This document shows positions 5,295 through 39,709 of a stretch of DNA of 64,000 nucleotides, piece by piece. The DNA comes from Bacteroidia bacterium. GTDB lineage: Bacteria; Bacteroidota; Bacteroidia; UKL13-3. Under the pieces are notes generated by a model. It ran no database searches, was not told the DNA's origin, and saw only the letters and a list, made by a program, of their open reading frames with translations. Made by a program: the position numbers and the translations under genes. The DNA lies in NCBI GenBank assembly GCA_041675505.1, contig JBAYTR010000010.1, forward strand, positions 67,895-131,894, read 5' to 3'. How positions within the stretch are numbered: position 1 is the stretch's first letter; each line of letters starts with the position of its first letter.

Positions 5295-6651
5295 GTTGTT
5301 CTCTCCACAATTCATTGAATGATTTGGCACTTAGTTCAGGAAACACCCTGCGCTCTCCCCAGCTGCTTTTAAACAACGATTTAATGAGGAAACCTTTAAT
5401 GCTAGGGGCGCGGTTCATTTTTTTGCGATCGAGCATGGCTTTTTTCCAGGCTATCCACATCAGCTTTTCGCTGGTTTTACCATGACCCTCATCTACAAAA
5501 TCTTTTCTGTTGGCCAGCAGTGTTTGGTGTATGGGAATGTTTACCGGGCACACATCGGTACAGGCCCCGCAAAGGGTGGAGGCGTGGCTCAGGTGCTTGA
5601 ATTCTTTGGCACCAAATTGCAACGGACTCACTACTGAGCCGATGGGTCCGATGTTGGTGCTTTCATATCCATGTCCGCCAATGGTTTTAAAAATGGGGCA
5701 CACATTGGAGCAGGCACCGCAACGAATGCATTTTAGCGCTGCCCGTTGTTCCTGTTTTTCGAGTACGTTGGTGCGGCCGTTGTCCAGCAGTATCACATAC
5801 ATTTCAGCAGGTCCGTCTCCTTCGTCCTGAAAACGCGGACCCATAAAAAGAGAGTTGTAAGTCGTGAGGTTTTGTCCGGTACCGTAAGTGGCCAGCATGG
5901 GCAGCAACACTTCCAGATCACCCATTCCCGGAATTATTTTTTCAATACCCGCCAGTACAATGTGTACCGCAGGAGCCGAAGTTCCTACACGCACATTGCC
6001 CTCGTTTTCGGTAATTACCACCGCACCGGTTTCGGCCACCAGAAAGTTGGCCCCTGTAATGCTTACCTGGGCATTGCGTAAATGTGTTTTTATATTGCCG
6101 CAGCCTTTTGCGGTAAGTTGCTCGGCTGTGGTCTCGTGGCTGTTGGGCAGATTAAATAAAGCACCTACCTCTTCCAATGATTTGTGCATGGCCGGTGTTA
6201 CCGGATGAAAAGGAGCTTCGTTGGCCAGTTGAACAATGTATTCGCCCAAATCAGTTTCGTGAACGGCTACCTGTTTTTGTGTAAAGTGTTTTTGCAAACC
6301 AATTTCTTGTGCCGTGGTTGATTTGCTTATGACAATTTCACTGGCTGCATGTTGGGTAACAATGTTTTCAATTTCGCTGAGTGCGGCAACCGCATCGGGA
6401 GCCCAAAGAACCTTCCCGCCCCTTTTGGTAAAGGCGTTTTCAAACTCCAGCAAAAACTTATCTAGGCTTTCAATGGCTCTCCACCGGGAAAAAGAGGCGC
6501 GCTCTTTGGCCAGTTCCAGCTGTTCAAACTGTGTGATTCCCTTGTGGTGTTGTACCCGATAATTGGCCAAAGCAGCATCTATCTTCTGGCGCCTTTCCGC
6601 ATCAAAAGCTGTTTTTTCAGCTAACCGAAGAAAACTTTCCAGATCTGCCAT
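5281..6651 (-). CDS. LutB-like LUD-domain iron-sulfur oxidoreductase
   Basis: Two ferredoxin-type 4Fe-4S motifs (CIRCGACSNVCP and CGACTDVCP) are embedded in a LUD-domain-like sequence of 456 aa. Confidence 0.65.
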   Translation of the reverse strand: MADLESFLRLAEKTAFDAERRQKIDAALANYRVQHHKGITQFEQLELAKERASFSRWRAIESLDKFLLEFENAFTKRGGKVLWAPDAVAALSEIENIVTQHAASEIVISKSTTAQEIGLQKHFTQKQVAVHETDLGEYIVQLANEAPFHPVTPAMHKSLEEVGALFNLPNSHETTAEQLTAKGCGNIKTHLRNAQVSITGANFLVAETGAVVITENEGNVRVGTSAPAVHIVLAGIEKIIPGMGDLEVLLPMLATYGTGQNLTTYNSLFMGPRFQDEGDGPAEMYVILLDNGRTNVLEKQEQRAALKCIRCGACSNVCPIFKTIGGHGYESTNIGPIGSVVSPLQFGAKEFKHLSHASTLCGACTDVCPVNIPIHQTLLANRKDFVDEGHGKTSEKLMWIAWKKAMLDRKKMNRAPSIKGFLIKSLFKSSWGERRVFPELSAKSFNELWREQHDKK

Positions 6652-13198: not shown

Positions 13199-13223
13199 CA
13201 GCAGCTAAGGTTGTTTAACCAAC
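13199..13223. repeat. 25-bp direct repeat, copy 2 (cagcagctaaggttgtttaaccaac)
   Basis: Matches the copy at 12740-12764 and overlaps the 3' end of the 13205-13546 gene. Confidence 0.6.
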
Positions 13224-13546
13224 GCAGCCAGTTGAGCAGGTGCCACTTCGCAATAAGCTGAGGTGAGTGCAGCTGTAAACAGACGCTTGCTTACCTTACT
13301 TAGTTCCACCATGGTCCACCCTTGTTTGCCCCACTTATTGTTTACAGGATACACGATGCTTTTGTCAGCCAGTGAAAACAGGTCCTGATTTATTTCAGAT
13401 AATTTAAGGCAGGCCCTGTTGTTTTTTTCGTCACAGGTGGCAAATATTTTTCCCTTTACCCGAAAGGAAATTTTTTCAAAGTGGGCCGCTTCTGTAGCCT
13501 CAGGAAAAGAAAGTGCAATAGTTCGGAAGGCTGCTAAACTCACCAC
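13205..13546 (-). CDS. MmcQ/YjbR-family protein (DUF419-like)
   Basis: The block EATEAAHFEKISFRVKGKIFATC is characteristic of YjbR-like proteins; 113 aa. Confidence 0.55.
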   Translation of the reverse strand: MVSLAAFRTIALSFPEATEAAHFEKISFRVKGKIFATCDEKNNRACLKLSEINQDLFSLADKSIVYPVNNKWGKQGWTMVELSKVSKRLFTAALTSAYCEVAPAQLAALVKQP

Positions 13547-13568
13547 GTGAGCAATGGTTCAGTGTGCA

Positions 13569-14180
13569 TTAAAAATTACCGTACGAGAGGAAGAACGAAC
13601 CGTTGGTAACTGTTTTCGACTGGGTACCTGTTTCGTTGTACAACTTACATGTGAAGGTGCCTTTTACATCCACATAGGTATCGCCAAAGATGCTGAACTG
13701 CTGTGTGCTGGTAATGTTAAACGTTGCCCCGCTTTGTGTACCGTTAATGCTGCTCCACACCTGTCCGGTGGCATCTACATGCAAAATTTCTACACCATCG
13801 GTAGTAGGGGTGGAATACATGTAATTTCCGGGAGCAAAATAGGCTACAAAATCAGCATCATCAGGGTAGGCACCCTGAAAGCTCATTTCACCCTTGTATA
13901 TGCTCACACCTCCTACGGTATTGTCAGAAAAAATATTGGAATAATAGTAAGCGGTAGAAAACTCAGGCAACGGGCGGGTTTCTTTACTGGAGCCGGCTGC
14001 TTGTTCAAAACCGTTTTTTCCGTCAGTGTAGGTGAGGGAACTGCCATCTACGGTAAGGGCAACATTATATCGGTTGGGAGTAGGAGTTGGGGTGGGTGTA
14101 ACGTTGTTATCATCATCGTCTTTTTTACAACCGGTAAACGCCAAAGCCAAAAGAGCTGCAGCAAAGAATAAATTTTTCAT
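13569..14180 (-). CDS. Hypothetical lipoprotein
   Basis: MKNLFFAAALLALAFTGCKKDDDD lipobox followed by a Thr-Pro linker (TPTPTPTP). Confidence 0.6.
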   Translation of the reverse strand: MKNLFFAAALLALAFTGCKKDDDDNNVTPTPTPTPNRYNVALTVDGSSLTYTDGKNGFEQAAGSSKETRPLPEFSTAYYYSNIFSDNTVGGVSIYKGEMSFQGAYPDDADFVAYFAPGNYMYSTPTTDGVEILHVDATGQVWSSINGTQSGATFNITSTQQFSIFGDTYVDVKGTFTCKLYNETGTQSKTVTNGSFFLSYGNF

Positions 14181-14354
14181 ACGTATTAAAATTTAGGTAA
14201 GACAAAAATATACTTTTTGGGATAAAAACCACAGGGAAGTGCAAGTTTTTTGAGGGAGCTGTTGTGTTGCCTTTCTGTTTGATAATTTGAAAGAGACCTT
14301 GTGGTTGCTGTTTGCTGAGCGTTTATTTAGGTAGGGTATTATTTTAGCTATAAG

Positions 14355-14390
14355 CTACATAAAAGAAAAGCGTAGGCGCAACCTACGCTT
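14355..14390 (-). terminator. Rho-independent terminator closing the minus-strand island operon
   Basis: 9-bp stem aagcgtagg / cctacgctt with loop cgcaa at 14368-14390. On the minus strand it is followed by ttcttttatg. Confidence 0.5.
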
Positions 14391-14459
14391 AGGTTGACCT
14401 CCCATAATTCATACATGTGGCATAATGCTTTATTCAAATCATTATTTGCAAGCTGCTTT

Positions 14460-15212
14460 TTATTTCCATTTCAGAAGTGTCTTTTCAAAAAGATAAATGA
14501 TTCTCGAAAACAAAAGAGCCAAAAGAATTATGCAGATTACAGCAGCCAAAACCAACGAAACATCATAAGTTCCACCAGCTTTAAAAACCCTATGTCCCAA
14601 ACCTTCGTGGGCTGAAATAAATTCGGCAATGAAGGCACCAAGTAAAGCAAAACTAATGTTCAGTTTAAGCGAATTAAAAAGCCAAACCAATGAAGAAGGC
14701 ACGATTAGTTTTGAAAATATCTGCGTCCGTGATGCTCCAAAGGAGTGAAACAGTTTTATTTGTTGAACATCAACTTGTCTTGCACCTTCATAGGATTGAG
14801 TGATTGCAATTACTACTGTTGAAAGTGCAGCCATTATAACCTTTGCATACATACCAGTTCCAAACCACATTATCATCATAGGTGCAATGGAAAAAATTGG
14901 AATTGCTCCAATTGCAATGATGTAAGGTCTTGTCAAGTCAGCAACTCGTTTTGAATACCAAAGGGAAAGTCCGATTGCTGCACCGCAAATGTTGCCAATT
15001 AGAAAACCATAAATCGCTTCCTGTCCTGTAATAAAAATGTCCCTTGGTAAAATACCATTGGAGATGTTTTCAATCAGCGAATGAAAAACTTTGGATGGAG
15101 AAGAAAACAAAAAGAGTTTCTTTTCAGTAGTTGAAATTACAAACTGCCATAACAGCAAGAAAACTGTTAATGGCAACAAACCCAAAATGATACTTATGAT
15201 TTTTCTTTTCAT
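14460..15212 (-). CDS. ABC transporter permease, NitT/TauT (SsuC-like) family
   Basis: Six-TM binding-protein-dependent permease with the EAA-like loop SYEGARQVDVQQIKLFHSFGASRTQIF. The ATG at 15212 forms an ATGA overlap with the upstream stop. Confidence 0.85.
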   Translation of the reverse strand: MKRKIISIILGLLPLTVFLLLWQFVISTTEKKLFLFSSPSKVFHSLIENISNGILPRDIFITGQEAIYGFLIGNICGAAIGLSLWYSKRVADLTRPYIIAIGAIPIFSIAPMMIMWFGTGMYAKVIMAALSTVVIAITQSYEGARQVDVQQIKLFHSFGASRTQIFSKLIVPSSLVWLFNSLKLNISFALLGAFIAEFISAHEGLGHRVFKAGGTYDVSLVLAAVICIILLALLFSRIIYLFEKTLLKWK

Positions 15213-15970
15213 TGTTCGTCTTGCTTTGGAAGTGATTGCCACATTTCAGTAAAGTATTTAGAAAACTTTTGGTCTTGCTTAACTGAAATTGGACTTCTCT
15301 TTTCTACATCAAAAGTTATCTGTAATTCCTTGAATGTTTCGTTTGGCTTGTGATTAAAAATTATTGTCCTATCGCTTACTGTTATTGCTTCATCAATGTC
15401 GTGAGTAATCAGTAAAACAGTTTTGTGATTCTCTTTTGACAAAGCATGTATTTGTGCTTGTAGTTCAAGCCTCGTGTTGTAATCAATTGCTGAAAATGGT
15501 TCGTCCAAAAGCATTATTTCAGAATCTAACATCAGTGTTCTGATAAGAGCAACTTTTTGTCTTTCACCGCCTGAAAGTTGTGAGGGATAACTATGAACCA
15601 AATTTGAGATGCCAAAGCGTTTCAAATACTGCATTACATTTTCTTTTGTTGAGGAATTTATTTTGCCTTGAATTTCAATACCGACAATTATGTTTTGATA
15701 AACTGTTTTCCAAGGGAGCAATAAATCCTTTTGCATCATGTATGCTATTGCAGTTCTCCTGTCTGCAATGTGGTCAAGTTTTACTTCTCCGCTATATTCA
15801 TTGTCAAGTCCGATTATCAAGTTGAAAAGAGTTGTTTTCCCACAACCATTTGGCCCCAAAATGGAAACAAACTCCCCTGAACGAATAGTGAGATTGAGGT
15901 TTTTAAAAACCTCAACGTTACCCGTTGGAGTGCTAAATGACTTGGTTATGTTTTTTAACTCAATGTTCAT
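15209..15970 (-). CDS. ABC transporter ATP-binding protein, NitT/TauT (SsuB/TauB-like) family
   Basis: Walker A GPNGCGKTT, signature LSGGERQKVAL, Walker B LLDEPFSAID and H-loop ITHD. Confidence 0.9.
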   Translation of the reverse strand: MNIELKNITKSFSTPTGNVEVFKNLNLTIRSGEFVSILGPNGCGKTTLFNLIIGLDNEYSGEVKLDHIADRRTAIAYMMQKDLLLPWKTVYQNIIVGIEIQGKINSSTKENVMQYLKRFGISNLVHSYPSQLSGGERQKVALIRTLMLDSEIMLLDEPFSAIDYNTRLELQAQIHALSKENHKTVLLITHDIDEAITVSDRTIIFNHKPNETFKELQITFDVEKRSPISVKQDQKFSKYFTEMWQSLPKQDEQ

Positions 15971-17514
15971 TAGTGCTTGACAATTTCCTTTTGTGCATTT
16001 GTAACTCTTGATTTTGCAAATGTCGCTTTAGAATAAATTTGATTAAATATTTTATAGCAATATGTTTCTTCTTTATCTCTCAAGGAAAATTGAGAATTGT
16101 TTTTTTGAATGTTTTGATATTCTTCTTCACTCAAATTGTTGTTTGCAAATTCATGTAGCAAACCCTTTCCTCTTTCAACGCCTCCAATTCCAGCCCCTTC
16201 CATCAAAGTCATTTTCTCTCTCGAATAAATGTAGTCAGGCAATAAATCTTTAAATGCTTCTCTCAAAACAAACTTTGTTGTTGTATCTCCTGTTTTTGTC
16301 TTTGCCACTTTTAAAGACGGATGAATGCTCAAAGCATATTCAACTAAAGTTCTGTCAAGAAAGGGTTCACGAACTTCAACGGCATATTTCATTCCTGTTT
16401 TGTCAACTCTCAAAAGTTGTGTCCTGTATAAATCGTTTAGAAGATTTTTAATTTCATTTTGAAATTCTGTTTCATCAGGAAGGGAAAGAAAATCACCATA
16501 GCCGCCAAATATTTCATCGCTGCCCTCGCCACACAAAACAATTTTGAAACCTTTGTCGTGTGCTAACTCTGCCAATTTCATTGAAAGTAAAGAGCCACGA
16601 ATAGGATTTGGTTCAAATGTCTCAATGGAATAAATCACATCAGGAACATTTTGAAGCAAATTTTCTTTGCTTGTTTTAATATGATGAAACTTCAAATTCA
16701 AATCATTGCAAAGTCGCTTTGCATAAATCACGTCTTCGCCTGAATCTTCACCGACAATTAAAGCTGTAACATCATTGTGATAACTGCAACACAATAAATG
16801 AACTATTGAACTGTCAATGCCACCACTTAAAAAAGTAGCAATAGGCAAATCTGTTTCAACTCTTTTCTTTACAGCCAATTCAACAAGTTCACGAACATTA
16901 TTTGTAATTGTGCTTACTGAATCAGTATTCCATTTTGTGCTTGGCGTTTTATAATACTGGAAAACTCCTTCATTGGTTATGTAGTGTGCTGGTTTAAGTT
17001 CTTCAAATGTTTCTACTTCCAAATCAGTAAAGGATTTCATTTCAGAAGAAATATAAACTACATTCTCACTCTTGCAGTAGAAGAATGGTTTCACTCCAAA
17101 AAAATCTCTTGCTCCGAAAAACTTATTTTGAACGGAATCATAAATTAGAAATGCAAACATTCCTTCTAACTGCTGCAAGAAATTTATTCCGTGTTCTTCA
17201 TAAAGATGAACCAAAACTTCTGTGTCGCAATCTGAAATAAACTTGTGTCCTTTCATTTGCAATTCTGATTTCAAATTTTTGTAGTTGTAAATCTCACCGT
17301 TAAAAACAACTCCTATTGTTTTGTTCTCATTGAAAAAAGGTTGTGTGCCATTTGGTCTGTCAACTATTTTAAGGCGAACACTTCCTAAGATTGAATTTCC
17401 TATTTGAACTTGTTTAGGTGCAGTATCTCCCCGATGCTCAATTTTTTTGAGCATAAACTCCATTTCTGTTTTGCCTTTTGGAGTAGGATTAATAATTGCT
17501 GCGATACCACACAT
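15970..17514 (-). CDS. Asparagine-synthetase-B-like class II glutamine amidotransferase with adenylating domain
   Basis: MCGIAAII Ntn nucleophile start and an SGGIDSS PP-loop, in the AsnB architecture; 514 aa. The substrate specificity is unknown. Confidence 0.8.
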   Translation of the reverse strand: MCGIAAIINPTPKGKTEMEFMLKKIEHRGDTAPKQVQIGNSILGSVRLKIVDRPNGTQPFFNENKTIGVVFNGEIYNYKNLKSELQMKGHKFISDCDTEVLVHLYEEHGINFLQQLEGMFAFLIYDSVQNKFFGARDFFGVKPFFYCKSENVVYISSEMKSFTDLEVETFEELKPAHYITNEGVFQYYKTPSTKWNTDSVSTITNNVRELVELAVKKRVETDLPIATFLSGGIDSSIVHLLCCSYHNDVTALIVGEDSGEDVIYAKRLCNDLNLKFHHIKTSKENLLQNVPDVIYSIETFEPNPIRGSLLSMKLAELAHDKGFKIVLCGEGSDEIFGGYGDFLSLPDETEFQNEIKNLLNDLYRTQLLRVDKTGMKYAVEVREPFLDRTLVEYALSIHPSLKVAKTKTGDTTTKFVLREAFKDLLPDYIYSREKMTLMEGAGIGGVERGKGLLHEFANNNLSEEEYQNIQKNNSQFSLRDKEETYCYKIFNQIYSKATFAKSRVTNAQKEIVKH

Positions 17515-17518
17515 TTTA

Positions 17519-18322
17519 TTATTTTTGTTCTTCTTTATTAAAATTTGAAAACCAAGGTCTGCTTCTTATTCCTTTACGAAAAGAGTAAATCTGTAAACTC
17601 GGAAGGTCGGGGGCAATCAATTCTTTTTCTTCATCCGATGTGTATGTGAGAAAAACATTTTGAAAAAAATTCTTTTCTACATACTGCTTTTCAATTTGAT
17701 TCATTGTAATGTAAGCATATGCCGATTCATCAGTTGAATTAAAACGCAAGTCGCCAAAAATTTGATTGTTTGAATATCTGTAAGAATGTTTACCTGCTGA
17801 TTTTTTTAAAAGTTCAAATGATTCTCTACCTTTTAAAAACTCTGGTATGTTATGACTTCCATTCTCATTTATAATTGCATTGATTAATGCATTCATGTCT
17901 TTTAAGTGATGTGATTTTGCAAAAGGCATTAGCACTTCGGACATGAGAACATGTGTGTAATTGAATTCATTTACAACGTTTCTTATCCCTTTGAAATAGC
18001 TTTTGTAATCTTCGGGCTTATAGCCATTAAGCATTGCATGTGTGTCAGTAAAAATTAATGTTAGCTGAGCATCCAATTTGTAATGCTTTTCAATAACTCG
18101 CAGAAAACCGAAAAGATTTAGCAACGCATCAAAGTCGTATTTGTCGGGGTACTTTTTATCGGATGCGCCCCAATATGAAATGAAACGAATATATTTCTTG
18201 TTATGCTTTACTCTTTCATTAACATACTTATCTAACTCCGCAATTTGTTTCTTGCGAACCTCAATCTTTTTTGCTGCTAAAAAAGAGCCGATTGTTTTTC
18301 CGTTTCGCAAATTGCTATTCAT
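17519..18322 (-). CDS. Hypothetical protein (267 aa), family not recognised
   Basis: AT-rich ORF coupled to its neighbours by an 8-bp overlap upstream and a 4-bp gap downstream. Confidence 0.6.
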   Translation of the reverse strand: MNSNLRNGKTIGSFLAAKKIEVRKKQIAELDKYVNERVKHNKKYIRFISYWGASDKKYPDKYDFDALLNLFGFLRVIEKHYKLDAQLTLIFTDTHAMLNGYKPEDYKSYFKGIRNVVNEFNYTHVLMSEVLMPFAKSHHLKDMNALINAIINENGSHNIPEFLKGRESFELLKKSAGKHSYRYSNNQIFGDLRFNSTDESAYAYITMNQIEKQYVEKNFFQNVFLTYTSDEEKELIAPDLPSLQIYSFRKGIRSRPWFSNFNKEEQK

Positions 18323-20189
18323 TGCGATAAAAATATTTGCTTTCGTGTTTTAGTTTAAACAATTCCCGTGAAGACAAAAAAACAATAACTAAACAAATTA
18401 AGAAACAATAAAAAATATAATTGCCATATTTAATTGTATGTAAAACTTCTTTGTATTCTATAGGGTCGCTATTCGGAACAACTTCTTGCCTTGCAAATTC
18501 ATGTTTCAATTCATCTAATTTTGGAGTTTTAGGATGTAAAATGTGAAACATACTTGATGTAATCTCAAGTAAAATAAATAACGAGCCTATAAAGTAAAGT
18601 AACGTGGGTTTTCTTACATGCTTCCATAATGAACTTTCTATAAACAGTCGAAAGTTTTCAACTTTATTAGTGAACAGTTTTAAGAGATATAAAAAGGGCA
18701 ACAATGGTGTTAAAAATATTCGCCAACCTGCCCACTTTTTTGTGTGTAACGTTTTTCTTTCAAGTTCAAAATAATGCTTTTCATTTTGACGATATTCAGC
18801 TAACAAATCATCAGCTACGAACAAACTGTAATCAATAGTTTGAGGAACAGGTATGCCCTCAGCCCTATATCGCAAAAGCGTTAATTCTTTCAAATCATCT
18901 TTAATCGGATTAGTTTTTGAGTAATACAAATTGCCAATATCTCTCCACTCTCTTAATCTATCTACATAGTATTTAAGAATTTCTTCAAGTGAAAATTTCT
19001 CTTTTTTATTATTGATAAGAAACTGGATATAACTTTTAATAGTTTCATCTGCGATTAAGAGGTTAAGCAATTCGTCTTGGGTATCATCATCATATTTGAG
19101 TTTTGTTTTCAGAAAGTGAATTAAGCCCGTTGTATCGCTTTTCTTTAGATACGAATGAATTCTGTGTAAATTTTTATCAATGCCGTAGAGCAACCCTTTA
19201 AGTTTTTCTGAATTTTCAGGTGCATTATTACCTAAGATGCCCGTAAACATGAAACTTTGATCGTTGTCATACGCTAAGTTTTCTAATTCAATAATTTTTT
19301 TGTTTGCTTCTCCATTATGCTTATCAAGTAAGAAATCAATACTTATAAAATCACATGAGAATGAGACAGAATTATTGCAATAGTCATCGTTATCTACTTC
19401 TTCGTCAATGGTTCCATTATTTTTATATGTTTTTTTACTTACTTTACGAAGTTCATATCCAAAATCTTTTCTTTCTTCTACCAATGTAGATGTAGATGTT
19501 TTGTATTGCTCATAATAGATATGACCAATACAAAATCCTGTTGAAGGAGTATCATAACAGATGATTGATTGAGTAATATTTTCTTTTCCGTATTGAGACG
19601 GAAAATTTTGTGGATTCTTATATAATCTACCTAAGTCATTAGACGAACTAGTTAAATCTCCACTTCCTACAGCCAGAAAAGCAATTTTTGAAACTAATCC
19701 ACCAATAACCTTTGTATTGGTTTTTAATATTTTCTCTTTAAAGAGGTTTACCCCATTCTCTTTAAAGACTAAATTGTTACTATTGTCAACATCTAAACAT
19801 TGTGAAAGATTGAGATTAAACTCTTTATTACAAATATCTTTCTTTGTTTTAATGTCAAGCAAGTCCTGAAACTTTTTAAGTTCTGCTTGTAGCTTGGTGG
19901 CATCGCAATGGTTCAAATAGATAAGATGAGATGGGTCGCAAATGGCTGCGTCTGCTAAACCAAGCAAAACGGAAAAGGTTGCAAATCCATCACCCTTTAA
20001 TTTCTTGCTCTGGTCAAACCTGAAATCATTTTTTGTTCCAATTATAACTACTTCTAATTCCGAAAATGGTGTGTCATGGAAATCATTGCCATAGTATGCA
20101 ACATAAAATGGAAGGTATAATACCGTGTCAGTTGATACGGCAATTTCAAGTTTGTCTTTTGTTCGTATGGAAGAAAATCCTGAATCCAT
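18315..20189 (-). CDS. Membrane-anchored protein with an N-terminal NMT1/THI5-like (SBP-fold) domain and three C-terminal TM helices
   Basis: N-terminal LYLPFYVAYYGNDF...GDGFATFSVLLGLADAAICDP parallels IYLPFYIAQEKGFF...GNDDQVFATVLKGEAQFGIGDP in the adjacent lipoprotein SBP. The C-terminus carries hydrophobic helices (WAGWRIFLTPLLPFLYLL, LLYFIGSLFILLEI, IFYCFLICLVIVFL). Confidence 0.6.
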   Translation of the reverse strand: MDSGFSSIRTKDKLEIAVSTDTVLYLPFYVAYYGNDFHDTPFSELEVVIIGTKNDFRFDQSKKLKGDGFATFSVLLGLADAAICDPSHLIYLNHCDATKLQAELKKFQDLLDIKTKKDICNKEFNLNLSQCLDVDNSNNLVFKENGVNLFKEKILKTNTKVIGGLVSKIAFLAVGSGDLTSSSNDLGRLYKNPQNFPSQYGKENITQSIICYDTPSTGFCIGHIYYEQYKTSTSTLVEERKDFGYELRKVSKKTYKNNGTIDEEVDNDDYCNNSVSFSCDFISIDFLLDKHNGEANKKIIELENLAYDNDQSFMFTGILGNNAPENSEKLKGLLYGIDKNLHRIHSYLKKSDTTGLIHFLKTKLKYDDDTQDELLNLLIADETIKSYIQFLINNKKEKFSLEEILKYYVDRLREWRDIGNLYYSKTNPIKDDLKELTLLRYRAEGIPVPQTIDYSLFVADDLLAEYRQNEKHYFELERKTLHTKKWAGWRIFLTPLLPFLYLLKLFTNKVENFRLFIESSLWKHVRKPTLLYFIGSLFILLEITSSMFHILHPKTPKLDELKHEFARQEVVPNSDPIEYKEVLHTIKYGNYIFYCFLICLVIVFLSSRELFKLKHESKYFYRNE

Positions 20190-20191
20190 AT

Positions 20192-21205
20192 TTAATTTGT
20201 CTTGGTATCTGAAATAGATTTTTCGGCAAAGGAATTATCTACTGCATCTGATGTTGGTTTCATTTCCTTCATGTCGCCTATATCAACTCTTACTTGTATC
20301 GCTTTCTGCCAAGCTTCATCACTCATTACAGCATGGTCTGGAATTGTTTTATCTGCTACCATTCTTTTTACAGCATTTGCAACAACTGCTTTGTCAAGGT
20401 TGGGGAAAAGTTTTGCTGCAATTTCTGCCGTTCCTGCTTCATCTGTGTGGCAATACTGTAATGCCTTTTCAATTGCGTTTACAAATTTTTGAACAGTTTC
20501 CTTATTGGCGTTTATGTATTCCTCTGTCGTTGTTAAGCCAGTGAAAGCAAATCTTCCATAAAACTGCGGTGAGGAGTAAACAACTTTGTAACCTTTACTT
20601 TCAGCTATTGATGTTCCTGGTTCTAAGTCCATCGCAATATCGGCACTTCCATTTTCAAGTAAAGCCAACTGTGAACCAATTGGGGCTTGAACAATGATTG
20701 TGTTTTTTAATAAATCTCCTCCTTTCATGAGTGTCTTTTTCATCAAAGCGTAATTTGTTGACGGGTCGGGGAATGTTCCAACTTTCAAACCAGCCAAATC
20801 ACCAGGCTGTTCTATGGTTTTGATGTTATCCTTGTTTGTTACACCCCAAATTGTTACTCCGTCAACGATGGAACCAATTACTTTTCCTTTTGCTCCTTTC
20901 TCTCGTGATATGGCAGTGAATACAGGGTCGCCAATTCCAAATTGTGCTTCGCCTTTCAAAACGGTTGCAAAAACCTGGTCGTCATTACCTGAAAACTTTA
21001 CAGTAATTTCAAGTCCTTCGTCTTTGAAAAAACCCTTCTCCTGTGCAATGTAGAAAGGTAGGTAAATTAGATACTTCTCTTGTCCCCACTGCGCTACTAT
21101 TACTTTGGTGACTTCGGTGGTTTTTGGCTTTTCAGTGTTGCATGAATTGCATCCTCCCAAAATGATTGTGAGAACCAGTAATGCTGCTAAAACTATTTTA
21201 TTCAT
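20192..21205 (-). CDS. ABC transporter substrate-binding lipoprotein, NMT1/THI5-like (NitT/TauT family)
   Basis: Lipoprotein signal LVLTIILGGCNSC followed by an SBP of the SsuA/THI5 type. Confidence 0.75.
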   Translation of the reverse strand: MNKIVLAALLVLTIILGGCNSCNTEKPKTTEVTKVIVAQWGQEKYLIYLPFYIAQEKGFFKDEGLEITVKFSGNDDQVFATVLKGEAQFGIGDPVFTAISREKGAKGKVIGSIVDGVTIWGVTNKDNIKTIEQPGDLAGLKVGTFPDPSTNYALMKKTLMKGGDLLKNTIIVQAPIGSQLALLENGSADIAMDLEPGTSIAESKGYKVVYSSPQFYGRFAFTGLTTTEEYINANKETVQKFVNAIEKALQYCHTDEAGTAEIAAKLFPNLDKAVVANAVKRMVADKTIPDHAVMSDEAWQKAIQVRVDIGDMKEMKPTSDAVDNSFAEKSISDTKTN

Positions 21206-21261
21206 TTTGACGGTTTTAATTGCTATTTTATATTGTAAAGATAGTTATTCACTCGATAAAT

Positions 21262-22788
21262 TCAACAATTGCTTCCCTTCTCAAAAAGTGTTTTCCAAAG
21301 GAATGTATCAAACAATTGTGCTAAGTTGTAAGTCAAAAACAAAAATAAAGTTCCTCCCAATAGTATTGCCAAAAACCATTTCCAAAGGTTGCTGTAAATT
21401 TTGAGTTTGCCATCAATGAATGCTACATCAGCATTGAATTCTTTATCATTATTAAGGATTCTCTGAATGTCTTCTTTTTCTAAAAGGTCAGTGTAGCGTT
21501 CTTTCAAATTTGTGTAGCTGTCAACGAATCTTTTGCGTTGCTCTTTCACTTCCCACTTTGCTACTAAGTAATAAAGGAATGAGCCGAACAAAAAAACAAT
21601 TGAAAGAACTGCTGTGTCAAGTGTAAACACATTTACAAAATCTCCATTGCCCAAAACTTTTATTGCGATTGCAGAAAAGTAAAAAGTGATTAGCGCCAAA
21701 GAACTTTTTTGAAAACCACTTGCAAATGTTTCAATGACTTTGTTTGCTCTGTTGTTGAAGTCAAGCAACTGGTCAGAAATTTTATTTCTGATTTCAATGT
21801 ATTGCTTGATGTTCTGCTTCTCGTAAACTTTGTAACTTGATTGAATAGATTGAAATGGATGCCCTTTCAATTCTAATTCACCACTATTTTCAAAGTGAAG
21901 TGAAATAATGTTTCTGGCTAAACCAATTTTATCATTGAGGTTTCCGCCACAATAAACCCAATTGTATATATTGAAATATTCTTTCGTTCCATCTATCGGC
22001 AATGCTTTTACATCAACTTTTCCTTTGATTGATTTATAACCGTTGATTTTAAATTCAAGTTCGTTGGCTTTTAGCGAAGTAATGTCAAACAAATAAACAA
22101 CGGAAAGCACAACAGCATAATGATTGAAAAGCAAACACAGCTTGCTGTGTTTTGCATTTTCAATTTGCAACTGAAAATCATCAGGCGTTAAGTTGTGTTC
22201 TTCAATGTTGGTGTAATTACTTGCTGAAAGAATGCTATCAAGGCGTTTATGCCTGTCAGCAAATGTTTGAGTAGGTGTGGTAGCACCTATTTGTGTAAAG
22301 AAAATATTTGCTGTATTGAATGGCTTGTCAAGATTCAACACTTTGAAGTTTACAAAAGGTGTGTTTGATAAAACACGATTGAAAACCGCATACGCTTCTG
22401 CTACTGACAAACTTTCAAGTGTTGCTGTGAAGATTTCTAAATCATATATAGAAATATTGTTTGAAATATTTCCTTTAGTGATTTTGAAGGTTGCTGTGAT
22501 TGGTTCGCCTTCCTGATGCAAATATTCCTTATCAAGTTCAGTTTTGAAATCGGTAAAATTTGAACTGGTTGAATAAAATGATTTTGGGTCGGCTTCTCCA
22601 AATTTGATTGTGAATGTTAATTGGTCGTTAGGCTCTAAAAAGTTGTAGGCGGTTTGAATGCTTGCAACCTCTGTCGATGAAAAGTTTGTTGCTGACAATT
22701 CACAAATAAATTCTTTGTCATTCTCTGAAACAGTTGTTTGAGAATAAGTAGAGAAAAAAGAGTGAATGAATTTATCAGCAAATTGCAT
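21262..22788 (-). CDS. Hypothetical protein with a soluble N-terminal 370 aa and three C-terminal TM helices (508 aa)
   Basis: Translationally coupled (TAATG) to the upstream NA37-like gene. It has no nucleotide-binding motifs. The TM helices are LALITFYFSAIAIKVL, AVLSIVFLFGSFLYYLVA and WFLAILLGGTLFLFLTY. Confidence 0.55.
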   Translation of the reverse strand: MQFADKFIHSFFSTYSQTTVSENDKEFICELSATNFSSTEVASIQTAYNFLEPNDQLTFTIKFGEADPKSFYSTSSNFTDFKTELDKEYLHQEGEPITATFKITKGNISNNISIYDLEIFTATLESLSVAEAYAVFNRVLSNTPFVNFKVLNLDKPFNTANIFFTQIGATTPTQTFADRHKRLDSILSASNYTNIEEHNLTPDDFQLQIENAKHSKLCLLFNHYAVVLSVVYLFDITSLKANELEFKINGYKSIKGKVDVKALPIDGTKEYFNIYNWVYCGGNLNDKIGLARNIISLHFENSGELELKGHPFQSIQSSYKVYEKQNIKQYIEIRNKISDQLLDFNNRANKVIETFASGFQKSSLALITFYFSAIAIKVLGNGDFVNVFTLDTAVLSIVFLFGSFLYYLVAKWEVKEQRKRFVDSYTNLKERYTDLLEKEDIQRILNNDKEFNADVAFIDGKLKIYSNLWKWFLAILLGGTLFLFLTYNLAQLFDTFLWKTLFEKGSNC

Positions 22789-23825
22789 TAGCTATTGCCG
22801 TTTTGTCTGTTGCTGAAATATTGATAGCCTTGTTCCGATTTGATTTTCACATATCTTGTTCCGTCTGCATCTTTTTCCGCTGTGATTATTGTTTCAAGGT
22901 TCGGAATATCTTCTTTCAAGTGCAAATCAATTTGGCTTGTCAAGGGGATAGTGTTTAGAAATTTTGCCCTAATCTTTGCCTTTACAATCGTGAACTGTTC
23001 GTCAAAAGGTGTTCTTGGTTTTGATGGCAATTGTCGGATTTGAGTTTTGATTTCTGCAACATCAAGGTTGGAATCGAAGGGAGTGTAGTTTCCAATTGCT
23101 GTGTCCAAATACTCTTGCATGTCAAAATTGTCGTTGGCTCTGAAATAGCGAACGGTGCTATTACGCAAATGCAAATAATCTTGTGGGTGTTTCTTTTTCA
23201 GTTTTGTAAATATGCCTTTGTCAATTGCTTCAAAAGCATTTTCTGTATTGTCCTCGTCTGAATAAACTTTGGTGAGTTCTAAAAAATCTTTCCACCAATA
23301 ATGAGAAAGGTTTGGATTGGTGTCATACACCAAAACATTAGTTACAGTTTGGTCGCTGTTTAGCGAACAAACAAATGCTTTGAAAACCTTTTTCTTTAAT
23401 GGAAGTCCTCTTGAAATAGTAAAATTTATTTCGTTTAAGAAATCGCTGTGGTCTGCTTTACAGATTACAAGTTTGTTGACGCTGTTTTCTGTTACCAATG
23501 CTTGAACAACAATTCCCTTTTGAATCTCAACTCCAAGTTTCAACATTTTTGCTTGTGCCTCTTGCTCTTTCTTCAAAAGTCGTGTTACTATTGTTGATGC
23601 AATTGCAGGAAATTCTTCACCTGCAATAATTTTCGTAATCTGTCCTCTTACTTCTGTTGTGTCGCTGTCAAACTTGAAGTTTCTACCACTGCTGCCTGTC
23701 GTAATGAGATTTACCAGTCCTTGCAAGTATGTGTTGAAGTCAGCACCATAAATTGATTGCTCAATTGATTCAACCGCTTGTTCATGAATGTCAACCTTAA
23801 ATATTTGTATGGCTGTTATGTCCAT
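22788..23825 (-). CDS. Nucleoid-associated protein NdpA/YejK-like (NA37 family), tentative
   Basis: MDITAIQIFKVDIHEQ resembles the YejK N-terminus MSLDINQIALHQLIKRDEQ, and the later block GIVVQALVTENSVNKLVICKADHSDFL parallels GGFVLFCHY...LLVAVL. The upstream 22 codons of the listed ORF look non-coding. Confidence 0.45.
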   Translation of the reverse strand: MDITAIQIFKVDIHEQAVESIEQSIYGADFNTYLQGLVNLITTGSSGRNFKFDSDTTEVRGQITKIIAGEEFPAIASTIVTRLLKKEQEAQAKMLKLGVEIQKGIVVQALVTENSVNKLVICKADHSDFLNEINFTISRGLPLKKKVFKAFVCSLNSDQTVTNVLVYDTNPNLSHYWWKDFLELTKVYSDEDNTENAFEAIDKGIFTKLKKKHPQDYLHLRNSTVRYFRANDNFDMQEYLDTAIGNYTPFDSNLDVAEIKTQIRQLPSKPRTPFDEQFTIVKAKIRAKFLNTIPLTSQIDLHLKEDIPNLETIITAEKDADGTRYVKIKSEQGYQYFSNRQNGNS

Positions 23826-24284
23826 GTTGTATATTTTAAAATGTGAAAAATTGTTGGTTAACGGGTGCTGATAAAGCGTTGGCGATTGCACACTTTTGAT
23901 TTCGCCTTTGGGTTGGCTTGTACGTGAGCTGCAAATGCAAATGTGTACTGGTGTTTTTTGTTTTCCAGCTGAAGCGTTTACAATTCAAGGAGGTGTCGTT
24001 GGTGTCAAGTTTTGTCAAAAAGTTCATTTTTCATCTGTCAGTTTAATGTTAACACTGTTGCCATAGGGTTTCCGGCAGCTTTTTTATATGCGAAGGTTTG
24101 CCTGGTTTTGTAAATATATCAATTTGCTCATAACTCTTCAAAAAGGGGGTTGTTTTTTGAATACTTTGTGATGTAAATCGCTTTGAAAATCTTGGCCAAT
24201 TAGGCCACGGGAATTTGCAAGACAGGTGAACAGGTTAGGTTGCATAGCATATTGGTTTTCAACGGCAAATTAGAAGGTTTTTTA

Positions 24285-24615
24285 TTACTGTGCAAATTTA
24301 TTATTGTGCTCGCATTGGGAGACTGCTTCTCCCGATAGCCATCGGGTCTCGGTGGCATTGCTTTTTGGGGTGCCGCGCTAGGCTCAATAAGACGTTTCTT
24401 TTTTGAAGAGAGATAGACTTTAAGCACATCGTCTTTGCGATGAACTTCTGGGTAGTGTGTTGGGTAGTCAAGAAGCAAACTTTAGTTCAGGGAAGCAACC
24501 TCCTATTACAACTTTGTGCTCACATTGGGGGACTGCCACGGGCTCTCATCACACAGGCTAAGCTTCGCCCTCGCAGTGACGTTGGTTTTGACAGTGACGT
24601 TCTTTTTTGAGTGCC
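24285..24615 (+). repeat. Two tandem units of about 207 bp sharing a 24-nt 5' core (ttgtgctcRcattgggRgactgc) and a 3' gacgtt(t)cttttttga motif
   Basis: The cores sit at 24304-24326 and 24514-24537. The 3' motifs sit at 24391-24408 and 24597-24612. Unit 1 contains internal hairpins gggagactgcttctccc and cccgatagccatcggg. Confidence 0.5.
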
Positions 24616-24627
24616 TTTGAAGTAATG

Positions 24628-25035
24628 TTACTTCATCTCCTGGCACAACTCAATCAGTACTCCGTTGGTGGCTTTGGGGTGCAGGAAACAAATGAGTTTA
24701 TTATCAGCACCGCGCTTGGGTGTTTCATGGATAAATTGAAATCCGGCTGCTTCTAAACGGGTTATTTCTGCTTCAATGTCTTCTACATCAAATGCAATGT
24801 GGTGTATGCCCTCGCCTTTTTTCTCAATAAATTTTGCAATGGCACTGTCGGCTGAGGTGGCTTGCAGCAACTCTACTTTGCTTTCTCCGGTTTTAAAAAA
24901 AGCGGTGATTACGTGTTCGCTTTCCACGCCCTCTTCTTTGTAGCAGGGTGTTCCCAAAAGTGCGGCAAACAGGCTTTTGGATGCTTCTATATCTTTAACG
25001 GCTATGCCCAGGTGTTCAATCTTGCGTAAATTCAT
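24628..25035 (-). CDS. Methylmalonyl-CoA epimerase (VOC/glyoxalase family)
   Basis: MNLRKIEHLGIAVKDIEAS...GEGIHHIAFDVEDIEA...LHPKATNGVLIEL, 135 aa. Confidence 0.8.
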   Translation of the reverse strand: MNLRKIEHLGIAVKDIEASKSLFAALLGTPCYKEEGVESEHVITAFFKTGESKVELLQATSADSAIAKFIEKKGEGIHHIAFDVEDIEAEITRLEAAGFQFIHETPKRGADNKLICFLHPKATNGVLIELCQEMK

Positions 25036-38188: not shown

Positions 38189-39709
38189 ATGAGCACACAC
38201 AGCTATAAAAAGTTGGTTGCGGTAGTATCGTTGCTTACCTCGCTTACCACACAGGCGCAGTTTAGGCACTTTAACAAAATGTACAACCACAAGGGTTGGT
38301 GGGACAATGCAGTGGGTGTAGTTGATTTAGGCAACCACTACCTTGTTGCAGGCACCACTGCCGATTTGCTTTCTCCTGATTCCAGCTACTACCGTTCGCT
38401 TTGGCTTTATTATCTTGATAGCGCGGGTAACAAAGGTAATGAGCGACTAATACATTTCCCTTACCAGTTTGCAGGTGTAGGGCCTGTTGGTTCTGGACGG
38501 AATTTCTTAACAAAAGCTTCTGAAGGAAAGTATCTATTTACCGGTACGCTTTCAGATACAAATCAAAATGCGCGAATATTGTTGATGGAACTTGACTCAT
38601 CTTTGCAGCCGTTATGGATAACAATAGATAGCACAAAAGGCTATATGCTTCCCTACGATGCTACTAAACTTTTGGATGGAGGCTATATGGTTTGCGGCTA
38701 TTCCGGTGAAAACTATGCAAGTAAATTGGAGGGCTTTTTAGCTCGATATGATCAGTGGGGGAATCGTATATGGGTTAAGCAATACTCTGGCATTGGAAAC
38801 ACAGGTTTTAGTAGCATTATTCTATTTGATTCATCTTCACTATTAACCACCAGAACGTATTCTCAATCGGGAAGTAAGACCTCCATTTTAAAGATTGACA
38901 CCTCAGGTGTTATGATATGGAGTAAAGAGACTAGCCTTAGTAGCGTTTCTTTTAATATTAAGAAAAGTACTGATAGCACTTATATTATTTATGGAGTAGC
39001 AGGAAAGACGAATAATATTTATGGGTTAGTTGGCAAGTTTAAACTTAATAATGAAGTAAGTCTAATGTGGGCAGACTCCTTTCGCTTAGCACGCTTTAGT
39101 CATTTTATTGATGTTTTTGAATTACCCGGTGGCAATATTATAGCTGTGGGTGAAACTGACAATGTCAACGCGTTTAATGGTACCACCATTGCTTGGTGTG
39201 TTAAGGTTTCTTCAAACGGCCAATATTTGAGAGAAAAGTTATACTTTTATGAAGACGGTCGCCCCAGCCACATGTGGGGCGCATCTTCTACCAGCGATGG
39301 GGGTATTATATGCGTAGGAACCGCACAAAACGATTATGAGCCTTCACCTTATGGGCAAGATGCCTGGGTTATGAAAATTGACACCAACCTGTGTGATACC
39401 CCTGGTTGTTCAGGAGTTATTATTGGTACTACAGCAGATGAAGAATTTAAAACAAATGATGTTAAGGTTTATCCCAATCCATTCAACAATGATGTAAATC
39501 TTATTTATTCTTTAAGACAGGGCGCATCAGAAATGTGTGTAAAGGTATACAACATGATGGGAACAGAGATTTATAGGCAGGAAAATTTACCCAATAGCTG
39601 GATTAATAGCATAGCCTTAAATTTAAGCCAACACCAAACAGGTATTTACCTGATAAAACTGTTTTGTAACGGCACACAAATAGCAACAAAAAAGGTGATT
39701 AAAAATTAA
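38189..39709 (+). CDS. Hypothetical secreted protein with T9SS C-terminal sorting domain
   Basis: Signal peptide and the C-terminal block VYPNPFNNDVNLIYS...IYLIKLFCNGTQIATKKVIKN. Confidence 0.7.
   Translation: MSTHSYKKLVAVVSLLTSLTTQAQFRHFNKMYNHKGWWDNAVGVVDLGNHYLVAGTTADLLSPDSSYYRSLWLYYLDSAGNKGNERLIHFPYQFAGVGPVGSGRNFLTKASEGKYLFTGTLSDTNQNARILLMELDSSLQPLWITIDSTKGYMLPYDATKLLDGGYMVCGYSGENYASKLEGFLARYDQWGNRIWVKQYSGIGNTGFSSIILFDSSSLLTTRTYSQSGSKTSILKIDTSGVMIWSKETSLSSVSFNIKKSTDSTYIIYGVAGKTNNIYGLVGKFKLNNEVSLMWADSFRLARFSHFIDVFELPGGNIIAVGETDNVNAFNGTTIAWCVKVSSNGQYLREKLYFYEDGRPSHMWGASSTSDGGIICVGTAQNDYEPSPYGQDAWVMKIDTNLCDTPGCSGVIIGTTADEEFKTNDVKVYPNPFNNDVNLIYSLRQGASEMCVKVYNMMGTEIYRQENLPNSWINSIALNLSQHQTGIYLIKLFCNGTQIATKKVIKN

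Follow-up and report, generated by a model that had tools for sequence, protein, structure and literature searches.

The minus-strand block at 14460-23825 of the window (the whole stretch of 64,000 nucleotides of Bacteroidia DNA that was analysed) is foreign to this Bacteroidia genome, and we moderately favour the view that it is a composite accessory island in which two independently mobile modules lie end to end: a gene pair (g1-g2) that is a candidate PANGU-like defence system, and a six-gene cassette (g3-g8) probably serving the import and modification of a small molecule (Table 1). The eight closely spaced genes have a GC content of 0.31-0.39 and a GC3 of 0.26-0.35, compared to about 0.44 and 0.42-0.55, respectively, outside the block, and the AT-rich character described in the first-pass annotation was borne out by both profiles, which fall below the rest of the window. 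A related contig (L093) aligned with the window by blastn at 84% identity over 13206-14226 and not at all past that point; in this relative the site holds genes for a HepT-like toxin and a DUF6855 protein in place of the block. The low GC, together with a relative carrying other genes at the site, agrees with the earlier suggestion of an acquired island: the block is compositionally foreign and its site variable. In nearly every host examined, the GC content of both modules is lower than that of the adjoining DNA. The block ends, as had been proposed, at an intrinsic-terminator-like hairpin with a T run, and Pfam, NCBIfam, PADLOC, Rfam and the literature yielded no characterised pathway that combines these genes, as the same annotation had supposed. 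The g2-g3 junction contained no terminator; its TATCTTTA resembles what we take to be the Bacteroidetes -7 promoter element and is a candidate internal promoter. Because the gap between the modules spans just 57 bp and no terminator separates them, g1-g8 may possibly be co-transcribed in this genome.

Table 1. Genes and other sequence features of the island, with positions in the window.
Feature	Position	Strand	Characteristics
g1, 345 aa, soluble partner	22788..23825	-	phage family phrog_30064; NA37/NdpA likeness sub-threshold
g2, 508 aa, candidate membrane effector	21262..22788	-	phrog_32650; weak match to SLATT model
Junction between the two modules, 57 bp	21206..21261	-	holds TATCTTTA, ~40 bp 5' of the g3 ATG
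g3, 337 aa, lipoprotein-type NMT1-family SBP	20192..21205	-	Pfam NMT1, E 2.8e-30
g4, 624 aa	18315..20189	-	~330-aa N-terminal SBP-fold paralogue, helical middle, C-terminal membrane helices
g5, 267 aa, isonitrile synthase (PvcA/IsnA/DIT1) fold	17519..18322	-	fold and superfamily residues
g6, 514 aa, AsnB-type glutamine amidotransferase/adenylating enzyme	15970..17514	-	GATase_7, E 2.8e-40; Asn_synthase, E 4.5e-52
g7, 253 aa, importer ABC ATPase	15209..15970	-	Pfam ABC_tran, E 9e-33
g8, 250 aa, NitT/TauT-type permease	14460..15212	-	Pfam BPD_transp_1, E 3e-28
Intrinsic-terminator-like hairpin, then T run	14368..14390	-	closing element of the block
Low-coordinate boundary zone of the island	14226..14367	.	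homology with contig L093 stops at ~14226

The distribution of the two modules contradicts the initial claim of a single eight-gene functional module, since they recur apart and their family sizes differ about 15-fold (24 clusters for the cassette among 5.8 billion proteins, more than 353 for g1-g2). The cassette, which is rare and has a patchy spread over phyla, is present complete and without g1/g2 at seven independent loci (L002/L014, L004, L005, L006-8, L015, L016 of a Zixibacteria host, and L082, where it is rearranged), and the g1-g2 pair is present without the cassette at five to six others (L010, L011, L012, L013, L087 and L102). Neighbours of the cassette loci include transposases of the DDE and IS3 types, part of an integrase beside a tRNA, R-M and Vsr/Dcm/SNF2/RadC genes, SLFN_AlbA_2 proteins, and TA genes. 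All eight genes could be read as one operon with one role, in which g1-g2 regulate or complete the importer and the enzyme set, as they are contiguous on the same strand, uniformly low in GC, separated at the g2-g3 gap by 57 bp without a terminator, and followed by a sole terminator at the block end. To judge by the sequences compared, however, this is highly improbable and already largely refuted by distribution: in addition to the gap in family size, the halves occur together in none of the 12 other loci examined, a prophage-type contig and Photobacterium carry the g1-g2 pair with no cassette nearby, and elsewhere the cassette has a separate intergenic region upstream. Of the alternative roles first suggested for the block, 'uptake and amidation' fits g3-g8 alone and 'defence system' g1-g2 alone.

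The two genes of the defence-like pair overlap at TAATG, both proteins matched their phage families over the full length, and the g2 homologues lie directly downstream of a g1 homologue in every case. The likely start of g1 is the ATG at 23825, with the ORF running on to a GTG at 23891. Hosts of the pair alone comprise Bacteroidota, Photobacterium, and the prophage-type contig, and defence genes adjoin: GmrSD is nearby in Myroides, an N6_N4 methylase is adjacent at L102, and the neighbours at L012 are DUF6602 and DUF2806. Three hydrophobic segments were found in the C-terminal part of g2 (about 362-380, 383-412 and 467-493); residues 1-120 have a net charge of -10 and a pI of 4.4, residues 1-355 a net charge of -10 and a pI of 5.4, and only the first 120 residues are clearly acidic. 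Against Pfam NA37, g1 scored 21.8 bits (cut-off 24.6) over 235 of 325 model positions, a likeness seen in one of six relatives; NCBIfam and PDB profiles gave no match, and hhalign with E. coli YejK returned a probability of 0.1, with shallow profiles. In PANGU, the PagA family corresponds to NA37/YejK/NdpA (IPR007358), and type II is bicistronic, combining the NAP Pag2A with Pag2B, a DNA-mimic/TM effector (bioRxiv 10.64898/2026.04.06.716658); it is the acidic N-terminal domain of PagB that mimics DNA and binds PagA. By analogy, g1-g2 most likely acts in abortive infection as a type II PANGU-like system, in which g1 would be a DNA-associated sensor that is released on infection, whereupon the membrane effector g2 would be activated.

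In the cassette, g3, g7 and g8 are, as judged from their domains, a NitT/TauT-type ABC importer: an NMT1 SBP, a BPD_transp_1 permease and an ABC ATPase are encoded in one operon, the ATG of g8 at 15212 overlapping g7 (ATGA). The N-terminus of g3 has a hydrophobic signal followed by Cys, and its closest solved relative is 3qsl, a structure without assigned ligand. No equivalog match to Ssu, Tau, Sao, Ntr or ThiXYZ was obtained, all being far under the NCBIfam cut-offs (SaoP 114 bits vs 295, SsuC 77 vs 347, SsuA_fam 69 vs 163); the best NCBIfam models for g7 were of the SaoA, TauB and SsuB types, each under cut-off, and the matches of g8 to SaoP, SsuC and TauC were partial. A second SBP-like domain, with large insertions (~70 aa) and cleft motifs in common with the SBP, forms the N-terminal part of g4, which has no signal peptide; from hydropathy and a model with a pLDDT of 77 we infer that it lies on the cytoplasmic side. 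The two to three C-terminal membrane helices of g4 contain invariant W522, G535, F538, E542, S545 and H549, and its tail a conserved KYFYRNE.

The three-dimensional fold of g5 is that of PvcA/IsnA, with eight residues invariant across the superfamily (W51, G52, H95, N99, Y109, Y204, P238 and W257) and others nearly so (D93, S128, E211, P241 and P256). Its score against Pfam PF05141 (DIT1_PvcA) was 17.9 bits (E 0.0024), below the gathering cut-off of 26.4; among the superfamily, 22 of 119 members matched this model at E<=0.01 (best 6.4e-8), and profile A7 reached PIsnA at a marginal E of 0.0054, D93-x-H95 of g5 aligning with the SDGH region, a conserved core motif of that family, and Y109 with Tyr. 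Neither the cassette nor any of the fusions has an IsnB/PvcB-type Fe/2OG dioxygenase; the partners are Asn_synthase, AMP-binding, NMT1 and CT_C_D. Isonitrile synthases convert the amine of an amino acid, with ribulose-5-phosphate, to an isonitrile (PMC7949033). Because g5 falls under the Pfam threshold and its link to PIsnA is marginal, its chemistry could be other than the making of isonitriles. Enzymes of related fold (class I aaRS and cyclodipeptide synthases) catalyse other reactions. In Alphaproteobacteria, relatives of g5 are instead partnered by subunits of the PxpB/C type alongside an EamA transporter.

Both domains of an AsnB-type enzyme are present in g6, with an N-terminal Cys nucleophile (MCGI), an SGGIDSS PP-loop and GEGSDE, and its alignment to E. 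coli AsnB (1ct9; E 3e-61) runs over the full length. It passes the generic model TIGR01536 (354 bits vs 267) and does not reach the NCBIfam AsnB equivalog NF006949 (406 bits vs 499). Nine residues of E. coli AsnB contact beta-aspartyl-AMP: L232, S346, G347, E352, Y357, K376, D384, R387 and K449 (PMC4659947). Three of the nine are replaced in g6 (S346C, K376L and D384Q) and L232 is F besides, G347, E352, Y357, R387 and K449 (E. coli numbering) are kept, and R382 is a new invariant. The altered acceptor site (S346C, K376L/Y/F, D384Q/H, R382) is common to all cassette and fusion AsnBs.

Since they are repeatedly fused in nature, g4, g5 and g6 form one intracellular functional unit: GATase, Asn_synthase, NMT1 and g5 domains are joined in P0242 and P0259, AsnB and g5 in P0308 and P0166, and NMT1 and g5 in P0200, and an AMP-binding (ANL) domain is fused to g5 in 18 of 119 representatives, one of these fusions lying within an NRPS cluster. 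The AsnB+NMT1+g5 triple fusion was found without an adjacent importer; import is thus not obligatory for the enzyme trio. Most likely, the cassette imports a small amino-acid-like carboxylate, which is then N-modified and amidated. A small, anionic compound of this type would enter through g3/g7/g8, and g4 would capture it at the inner membrane face and either pass it to the enzymes or gate the transporter in the manner of CmpC/NrtC; g5 might act on its amino group through C1 chemistry of the isonitrile or formamide type, and g6 would adenylate a carboxylate and then turn it into an amide using ammonia from glutamine. There is precedent for an intracellular SBP-like sensor within the same transporter family (PMC13287603). 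An N-modified carboxamide would result, more likely a metal-binding or antagonistic small molecule than a nutrient.

Alternatively, g4 might be a pure regulator instead of channelling substrate: an intracellular ligand sensor that either gates the ABC transporter in the way of the CmpC/NrtC CRD or signals via its membrane helices, with g5 and g6 acting independently on the imported compound. This seems rather improbable, as the ATPase is not fused to g4, and NMT1-like domains are fused to g5 or AsnB+g5 in soluble proteins with no transporter beside them, which argues for a role of g4 inside the enzyme unit. The six genes could also provide anti-phage defence, through an antiviral small molecule or as a nutrient- or ligand-sensing abortive system: their surroundings resemble defence islands in several hosts (Vsr/Dcm/SNF2/RadC, SLFN_AlbA_2, TA, transposases), they abut the candidate defence pair in the window, their AT content exceeds that of the flanks in almost every host, and they are rare, with a patchy spread over phyla. 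We consider such a role unlikely, however, because PADLOC yielded no cassette-specific match, only a generic ABC-ATPase likeness of g7, viral contigs are without the cassette, the enzyme trio also occurs in non-defence contexts, and an ANL-g5 fusion lies in an NRPS cluster; moreover, we know of no binding-protein-dependent importer in a defence system, and metabolic cargo also travels on mobile islands. Ordinary nutrient assimilation, with uptake of a compound of the sulfonate, pyrimidine or amino-acid type and a spare asparagine synthetase to supply nitrogen or asparagine, would suit a transporter family (NitT/TauT) that imports sulfonates, taurine, nitrate, HMP/FAMP, thiamin and PQQ, and an enzyme as close to E. 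coli AsnB and TIGR01536 as g6. Yet it is rather improbable for a cassette that is extremely rare and mobile instead of lineage-conserved, stays below the SsuABC, TauABC, ThiXYZ and AsnB equivalog cut-offs, has no riboswitch, shows systematic replacement of three of the nine aspartyl-AMP contacts, and is obligatorily tied or fused to an isonitrile-synthase-fold enzyme foreign to such pathways.

The preferred reading of a candidate defence pair beside a putative import-and-modify cassette draws on several known systems. With type II PANGU, g1-g2 shares a bicistronic arrangement of two overlapping genes, the first for a soluble protein of ~340 aa and the second for a partner that is acidic at its N-terminus and carries membrane helices at its C-terminus, as well as linkage to R-M and GmrSD genes, carriage by phages, and a distribution across phyla that is sporadic in Bacteroidota; the NA37 likeness of g1, in contrast, is sub-threshold and confined to one of six relatives, and the pair is likened to PANGU by architecture and not by Pag2A/Pag2B sequence. 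Like the intracellular CRD of NrtC/CmpC, g4 has the SBP fold, is paralogous to the SBP of its own system and putatively lies on the cytoplasmic side; however, the CRD sits at the C-terminus of one NBD subunit, whereas g4 is a separate gene product with its own membrane helices, a helical domain and the insertions of ~70 aa, and g7 is a plain ATPase. In other lineages, the fusion partners of this second SBP copy are enzymes and not transporters. The two-domain architecture, Cys nucleophile, SGGxDS, GEGSDE, R387 and K449 are common to g6 and E. coli AsnB, but g6-type forms are always linked or fused to g5. Identity of g5 to IsnA/PvcA/PIsnA/DIT1 (PF05141) is 14-16%, and it has motifs of its own (YWG-S-K, FTDTHAxLNG, RPWF); its partners are an AsnB-like or ANL adenylating enzyme and an SBP-fold domain, whereas that of IsnA/PvcA is the IsnB/PvcB dioxygenase. 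A parallel is offered by fungal CrmA, an ICS-NRPS hybrid whose crm/xan clusters are copper-responsive (PMC5974471): here too an ICS-fold domain is tied to a carboxylate-adenylating module and transporters are clustered, and the product class binds metals, a link known for crm/xan only. The domain order of CrmA is reversed in the bacterial fusions, in which ANL is N-terminal, and in the cassette an AsnB takes the place of the A-domain and the transporter is a binding-protein-dependent importer.

Eight genes follow one another on the minus strand of the window, itself part of a 196.8-kb contig in the MAG of an uncultured 'Bacteroidia bacterium'. Their junctions are, in order, TAATG, 57 bp, 2 bp, an 8-bp overlap, 4 bp, TAATG and ATGA. 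In 1-kb windows the GC content of the block dropped to 0.31-0.38 versus ~0.42-0.49 on either side, and GC3 was 0.26-0.35 in all eight genes versus 0.42-0.55 in almost all other long ORFs. The first-pass annotation, which had described a closely packed, AT-rich run of eight genes with a terminator at its end, was correct in all measurable respects. Two genes for T9SS cargo proteins (Por_Secre_tail, one of them also with Reg_prop repeats) are likewise low in GC3, so low GC in this genome is not confined to the island; the window has further low-GC patches (see the table).

The island was acquired, as the first-pass annotation had proposed, and its site is variable. The metagenomic contig L093 is 84% identical over the low-coordinate flank; where the homology ends, beside the gene for the flanking lipoprotein, it has instead genes for a DUF6855 protein and a HepT-like toxin, with no MNT antitoxin seen on this short contig. 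The locus is an accessory-gene hotspot, marked by these two genes in the close relative. A search for an empty site with the exact mce protein returned the same contig alone, the window contains no tRNA, and no convincing att site or direct or inverted repeat turned up around the island. The ~800-bp non-coding spacer between mce and g1 has two copies of a 22-nt motif, CAGTCYCCCAATGYGAGCACAA (zero expected by chance), each within a GC-richer patch with short hairpins; at this high-coordinate edge of the island the pair might be what is left of a repeat element, or a scar of integration.

The island is very probably a composite of two stacked cargo modules, the pair g1-g2 (345 and 508 aa) and the cassette g3-g8. 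The close family of g5 comprised 24 clusters in a set of 5.8 billion proteins, and every one came from uncultured Bacteroidia or Saprospiraceae; the loci of g5 homologues at 84%, 68%, 53% and 43% identity each showed six genes in constant order: SBP, a ~600-640 aa protein, a ~260-274 aa protein, AsnB, ABC ATPase and permease. The NA37-like gene and the gene for the 508-aa protein never adjoined the cassette at these loci. A scan of one genome per species recovered the full cassette also in a Cellulophaga MAG and a Zixibacteria MAG, and in a Saprospiraceae MAG (L082) its order was rearranged with all six functions retained. The g2 family (>353 clusters) includes cultured Niabella, Myroides, Flavobacterium and Dyadobacter; a g1 homologue preceded g2 at every locus examined, with overlapping stop and start codons, and the cassette was absent near g2 at every such locus outside the window. 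This separate distribution counts against one system formed by all eight genes, a reading that is largely excluded. Of the acquired single module proposed from the sequence, acquisition stands and unity does not, because the two parts each recur apart, the AsnB-like gene in a conserved six-gene order and the NA37-like gene in a separate conserved pair. Elsewhere the cassette neighbours a DDE transposase, an IS3 element or an integrase fragment beside a tRNA, as well as Vsr/Dcm/SNF2 genes, SLFN_AlbA_2 proteins and TA genes; its GC lies below that of the flanks in almost every host, and that of the g1-g2 pair does likewise. A neat-looking eight-gene 'operon' in a MAG would thus be a stack of two mobile modules at a variable site, a useful lesson for the annotation of defence and accessory islands.

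Features of the window and of the loci and proteins compared with it
Feature	Locus or protein	Position	Strand	Details
Eight successive ORFs, g1-g8	window	14460-23825	minus	
Terminator-like hairpin	window	14390-14368	minus	closes block
g4 gene	window	18315-20189	minus	
End of homology to L093	window	~14226		
CAGTCYCCCAATGYGAGCACAA	window	24304-24325, 24514-24535	minus	210 bp apart
mce	window	24628-25035		
T9SS cargo genes	window	45419-46675 (minus), 38189-39709 (plus)		GC3 0.27, 0.36
Low-GC patches	window	33-35 kb, 58-59 kb		
DUF6855 and HepT-like toxin genes	L093	221-1021		at island site
g1-g2 pair locus	Myroides			near GmrSD
g1-g2 pair loci	two Bacteroidetes MAG loci			
g1-g2 pair locus	Photobacterium replicon			
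g1-g2 pair locus	IMG/VR prophage-type contig			beside DNA methylase
Second SBP-fold protein	L082	2393-4015		
Extra 258-aa gene	L006 (also L007, L008)	5244-6020		between g5 homologue and AsnB
Fusion GATase + Asn_synthase + NMT1 + g5	P0242, P0259			one 1030-aa protein
P0242 triple-fusion gene	L089	4676-7768		
P0242 triple-fusion gene	L090	2677-5769		
Fusion AsnB + g5	P0308			Patescibacteria
Fusion NMT1 + g5	P0200			
Fusion AMP-binding (ANL) + g5	18/119 representatives			
Fusion AMP-binding + g5, NRPS cluster	L091, P0177	2291-4501		736 aa
Fusion g5 + CT_C_D	P0173			

Within the cassette, g3, g7 and g8 form a binding-protein-dependent importer of the NitT/TauT family, which reached no equivalog cut-off, and the closest solved SBP to g3 has no known ligand. 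A thiamine/HMP or sulfonate operon, the familiar kind of locus against which the first-pass annotation had set its reading, was rejected on these thresholds and on the absence of a TPP riboswitch. Rfam searches gave nothing between 13 and 26 kb of the window (E<=1) and, at gathering thresholds upstream of the cassette at seven loci, nothing but one tRNA (L005); upstream of the SBP gene the loci share no conserved sequence. The 624-aa g4 has no signal peptide, and its first ~300 residues adopt the SBP fold of g3 (BLASTP between the two, E 8e-4); then come a helical region and, at the C-terminus, membrane helices in which polar residues are invariant. The g4 sequence found no match in the PDB. 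In a predicted membrane helix W522, G535, F538, E542, S545 and H549 are invariant, and the tail KYFYRNE is nearly so family-wide; such conservation is more than a simple anchor usually shows, and suggests that this part of g4 binds something or signals within the membrane. The second SBP-fold protein of L082 has the reverse layout of g4, with hydrophobic helices N-terminal and NMT1 C-terminal; membrane anchoring of the second SBP copy is thus conserved, its topology perhaps not. The cleft motifs YxPxY, GDD/GDG, DP loop, PST/FST loop and FTG are common to periplasmic g3, g4 and the fused NMT1 domains, which would agree with one small anionic ligand for all of them, or with related ones. No description of an intracellular membrane-anchored SBP paralogue was found in the literature searched.

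The predicted structure of g5 (267 aa, pLDDT 91) found its best matches in the isonitrile synthases PIsnA and PvcA (Foldseek E 1.5e-6, TM 0.6), clearly ahead of TyrRS and cyclodipeptide synthases. PF05141 was the only Pfam family recurring on the g5 domain (22 of 119 relatives, best E 6.4e-8), the g5 family itself being without a Pfam model. Against the PDB, neither the single sequence nor the close-family profile A1 gave a match; the superfamily profile A7 placed PIsnA on top at a marginal E of 0.005, its alignment setting the invariant D-x-H of g5 on the SDGH of PIsnA. The sequence link to isonitrile synthases is weak but consistent. No IsnB-type partner of g5 was found. An exhaustive profile search gave about 424 g5-domain clusters at 50% identity, only eight of them at cassette-like similarity; fusion proteins are frequent among the others. 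The most divergent cassettes encode an additional 258-aa protein with two N-terminal TM helices and a weak DUF5919 match. Distant homologues (23-33% identity) occur at ~65 loci of Alphaproteobacteria (L017-L086, e.g., Bradyrhizobium glycinis, L017; Methylobacterium spp.; L035), where their neighbourhood is conserved and includes CT_C_D and CT_A_B subunits (PxpB/PxpC or KipI/KipA-type) and an EamA transporter, often adjoining a dCache-PAS-GGDEF-EAL protein. The enzyme family thus has another context, likewise uncharacterised, which was rejected as a guide to what the cassette does, since these relatives stand beside PxpB/C-type and EamA proteins and not AsnB or an ABC importer, and are uninformative on the cassette.

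The product of g6 can be aligned over its whole length with E. coli AsnB (E 3e-61) and retains the Cys nucleophile, the PP-loop and GEGSDE. In E. coli AsnB nine residues touch beta-aspartyl-AMP (PMC4659947). AsnBs associated with g5, whether in a cassette or fused, carry C for S346, a hydrophobic residue for K376 and Q or H for D384, and an invariant Arg is new at 382, with the catalytic residues retained. These altered contacts suggest an acceptor other than plain L-aspartate, and would fit a substrate with a modified amino group; an ordinary asnB was rejected for g6 on the altered acceptor site and the obligatory linkage to g5. The Rosetta-stone fusions (see the table) show that AsnB works together with the g5 domain and the SBP-fold domain within the cell, and that the g5 domain habitually pairs with carboxylate-activating enzymes; the importer is absent alongside the triple fusion of AsnB, NMT1 and g5. 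Translation with table 11 of the P0242 gene at both its loci does not give the query, and P0242 has W at otherwise conserved G/S positions (e.g., CWEWADE for CGEGSDE), a pattern suggestive of a recoded gene, or of a host in which a stop codon is reassigned. The NRPS cluster around P0177 encodes a CmlA_N/metallo-beta-lactamase hydroxylase, a RamC_N/Pkinase protein, a free PP-binding carrier protein and a C-A-T megasynthetase of >3000 aa.

Gene content, folds, fusions and six-gene linkage across phyla and across rearrangement are established for the cassette. We propose, with about equal weight for and against, that it imports and modifies a small molecule: the importer would bring a small amino-acid-like carboxylate into the cell, where g4, anchored on the inner side of the membrane, would bind it and either hand it to the enzymes or gate the transporter, as the CRD of CmpC/NrtC does (PMC13287603); g5 would alter the amine by isonitrile- or formamide-type chemistry, and g6 would adenylate and then amidate a carboxylate. 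A role of g4 as pure regulator is a live alternative within this scheme. Known isonitrile synthases condense the amino-acid nitrogen with carbon from ribulose-5-phosphate (PMC7949033); that g5 performs isonitrile chemistry specifically is rather improbable. Ordinary nutrient uptake with a spare asnB is an unlikely account of the cassette, which is rare and mobile, has an altered AsnB site and an obligatory g5 partner. Going by the known isocyanides, a metal-binding or antagonistic metabolite seems a more likely role than nutrient assimilation. The cassette might itself be a defence system, as its neighbours of defence-island type would allow, but specific support is lacking, PADLOC giving only a generic ABC-ATPase match, to g7.

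Literature searches on the gene combination gave nothing usable. The six-gene system matches no characterised pathway; all its parts belong to known superfamilies, and it is therefore not categorically new. Importation with g3 and modification as proposed would mean that an importer's binding protein has gained a second copy on the cytoplasmic side, which became part of an enzyme complex, a form of substrate hand-over or gating akin to, yet distinct from, the NrtC/CmpC regulatory domain. It would also define an unannotated enzyme family, with an isonitrile-synthase-fold domain consistently fused to adenylating enzymes, and predict new isocyanide-type or related N-C1 chemistry in Bacteroidota, Patescibacteria, Alphaproteobacteria and NRPS clusters. 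Hybrids of isocyanide synthase (ICS) with PF00501 are reported from fungi alone (CrmA), in copper-responsive, transporter-carrying clusters (PMC5974471), and obligate coupling of ICS-type enzymes to carboxylate-activating enzymes so far from fungal ICS-NRPS hybrids only; the L091 cluster looks like their bacterial counterpart, and the literature searched had no description of bacterial fusions that join an ICS-like domain to AsnB or ANL enzymes. A tentative, on the whole unlikely, extension is an undescribed pathway from importer through g4 to a new ICS-superfamily branch and the AsnB-like enzyme, yielding a metal-binding or antagonistic (possibly antiviral) isonitrile or formamide carboxamide, the g5 superfamily then being a new ICS-like class obligately coupled to carboxylate-activating enzymes in bacteria.

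For the g1-g2 pair the comparison lies with PANGU defence, in which a YejK/NA37-type nucleoid-associated protein leaves the nucleoid when infection has degraded it, and then activates an effector. The type II effector, Pag2B, has an acidic DNA-mimic N-terminal domain and a C-terminal TM domain; PANGU systems, which are sporadic in Bacteroidota, act by abortive infection (bioRxiv 10.64898/2026.04.06.716658). The pair has the same architecture, g2 being acidic over residues 1-120 with three C-terminal hydrophobic segments. PADLOC gave for the block a weak SLATT-model match (g2), generic ABC-ATPase similarity (g7) and nothing else. Full-length phage families without known function are matched by g1 (phrog_30064) and g2 (phrog_32650). 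The match of g1 to Pfam NA37 is below threshold and was seen in one of six relatives, and PDB profile, NCBIfam and hhalign against E. coli YejK were all negative; NA37 membership of g1 is thus not established, and the pair is said to work like a type II PANGU system, not classed as a member. Such a pair beside a cassette that imports and modifies a small molecule is, as the best joint explanation of the island, one towards which we lean slightly. If the NA37 relationship of g1 is confirmed, a defence type described only in 2026 would extend to a large family of Bacteroidota and phages.
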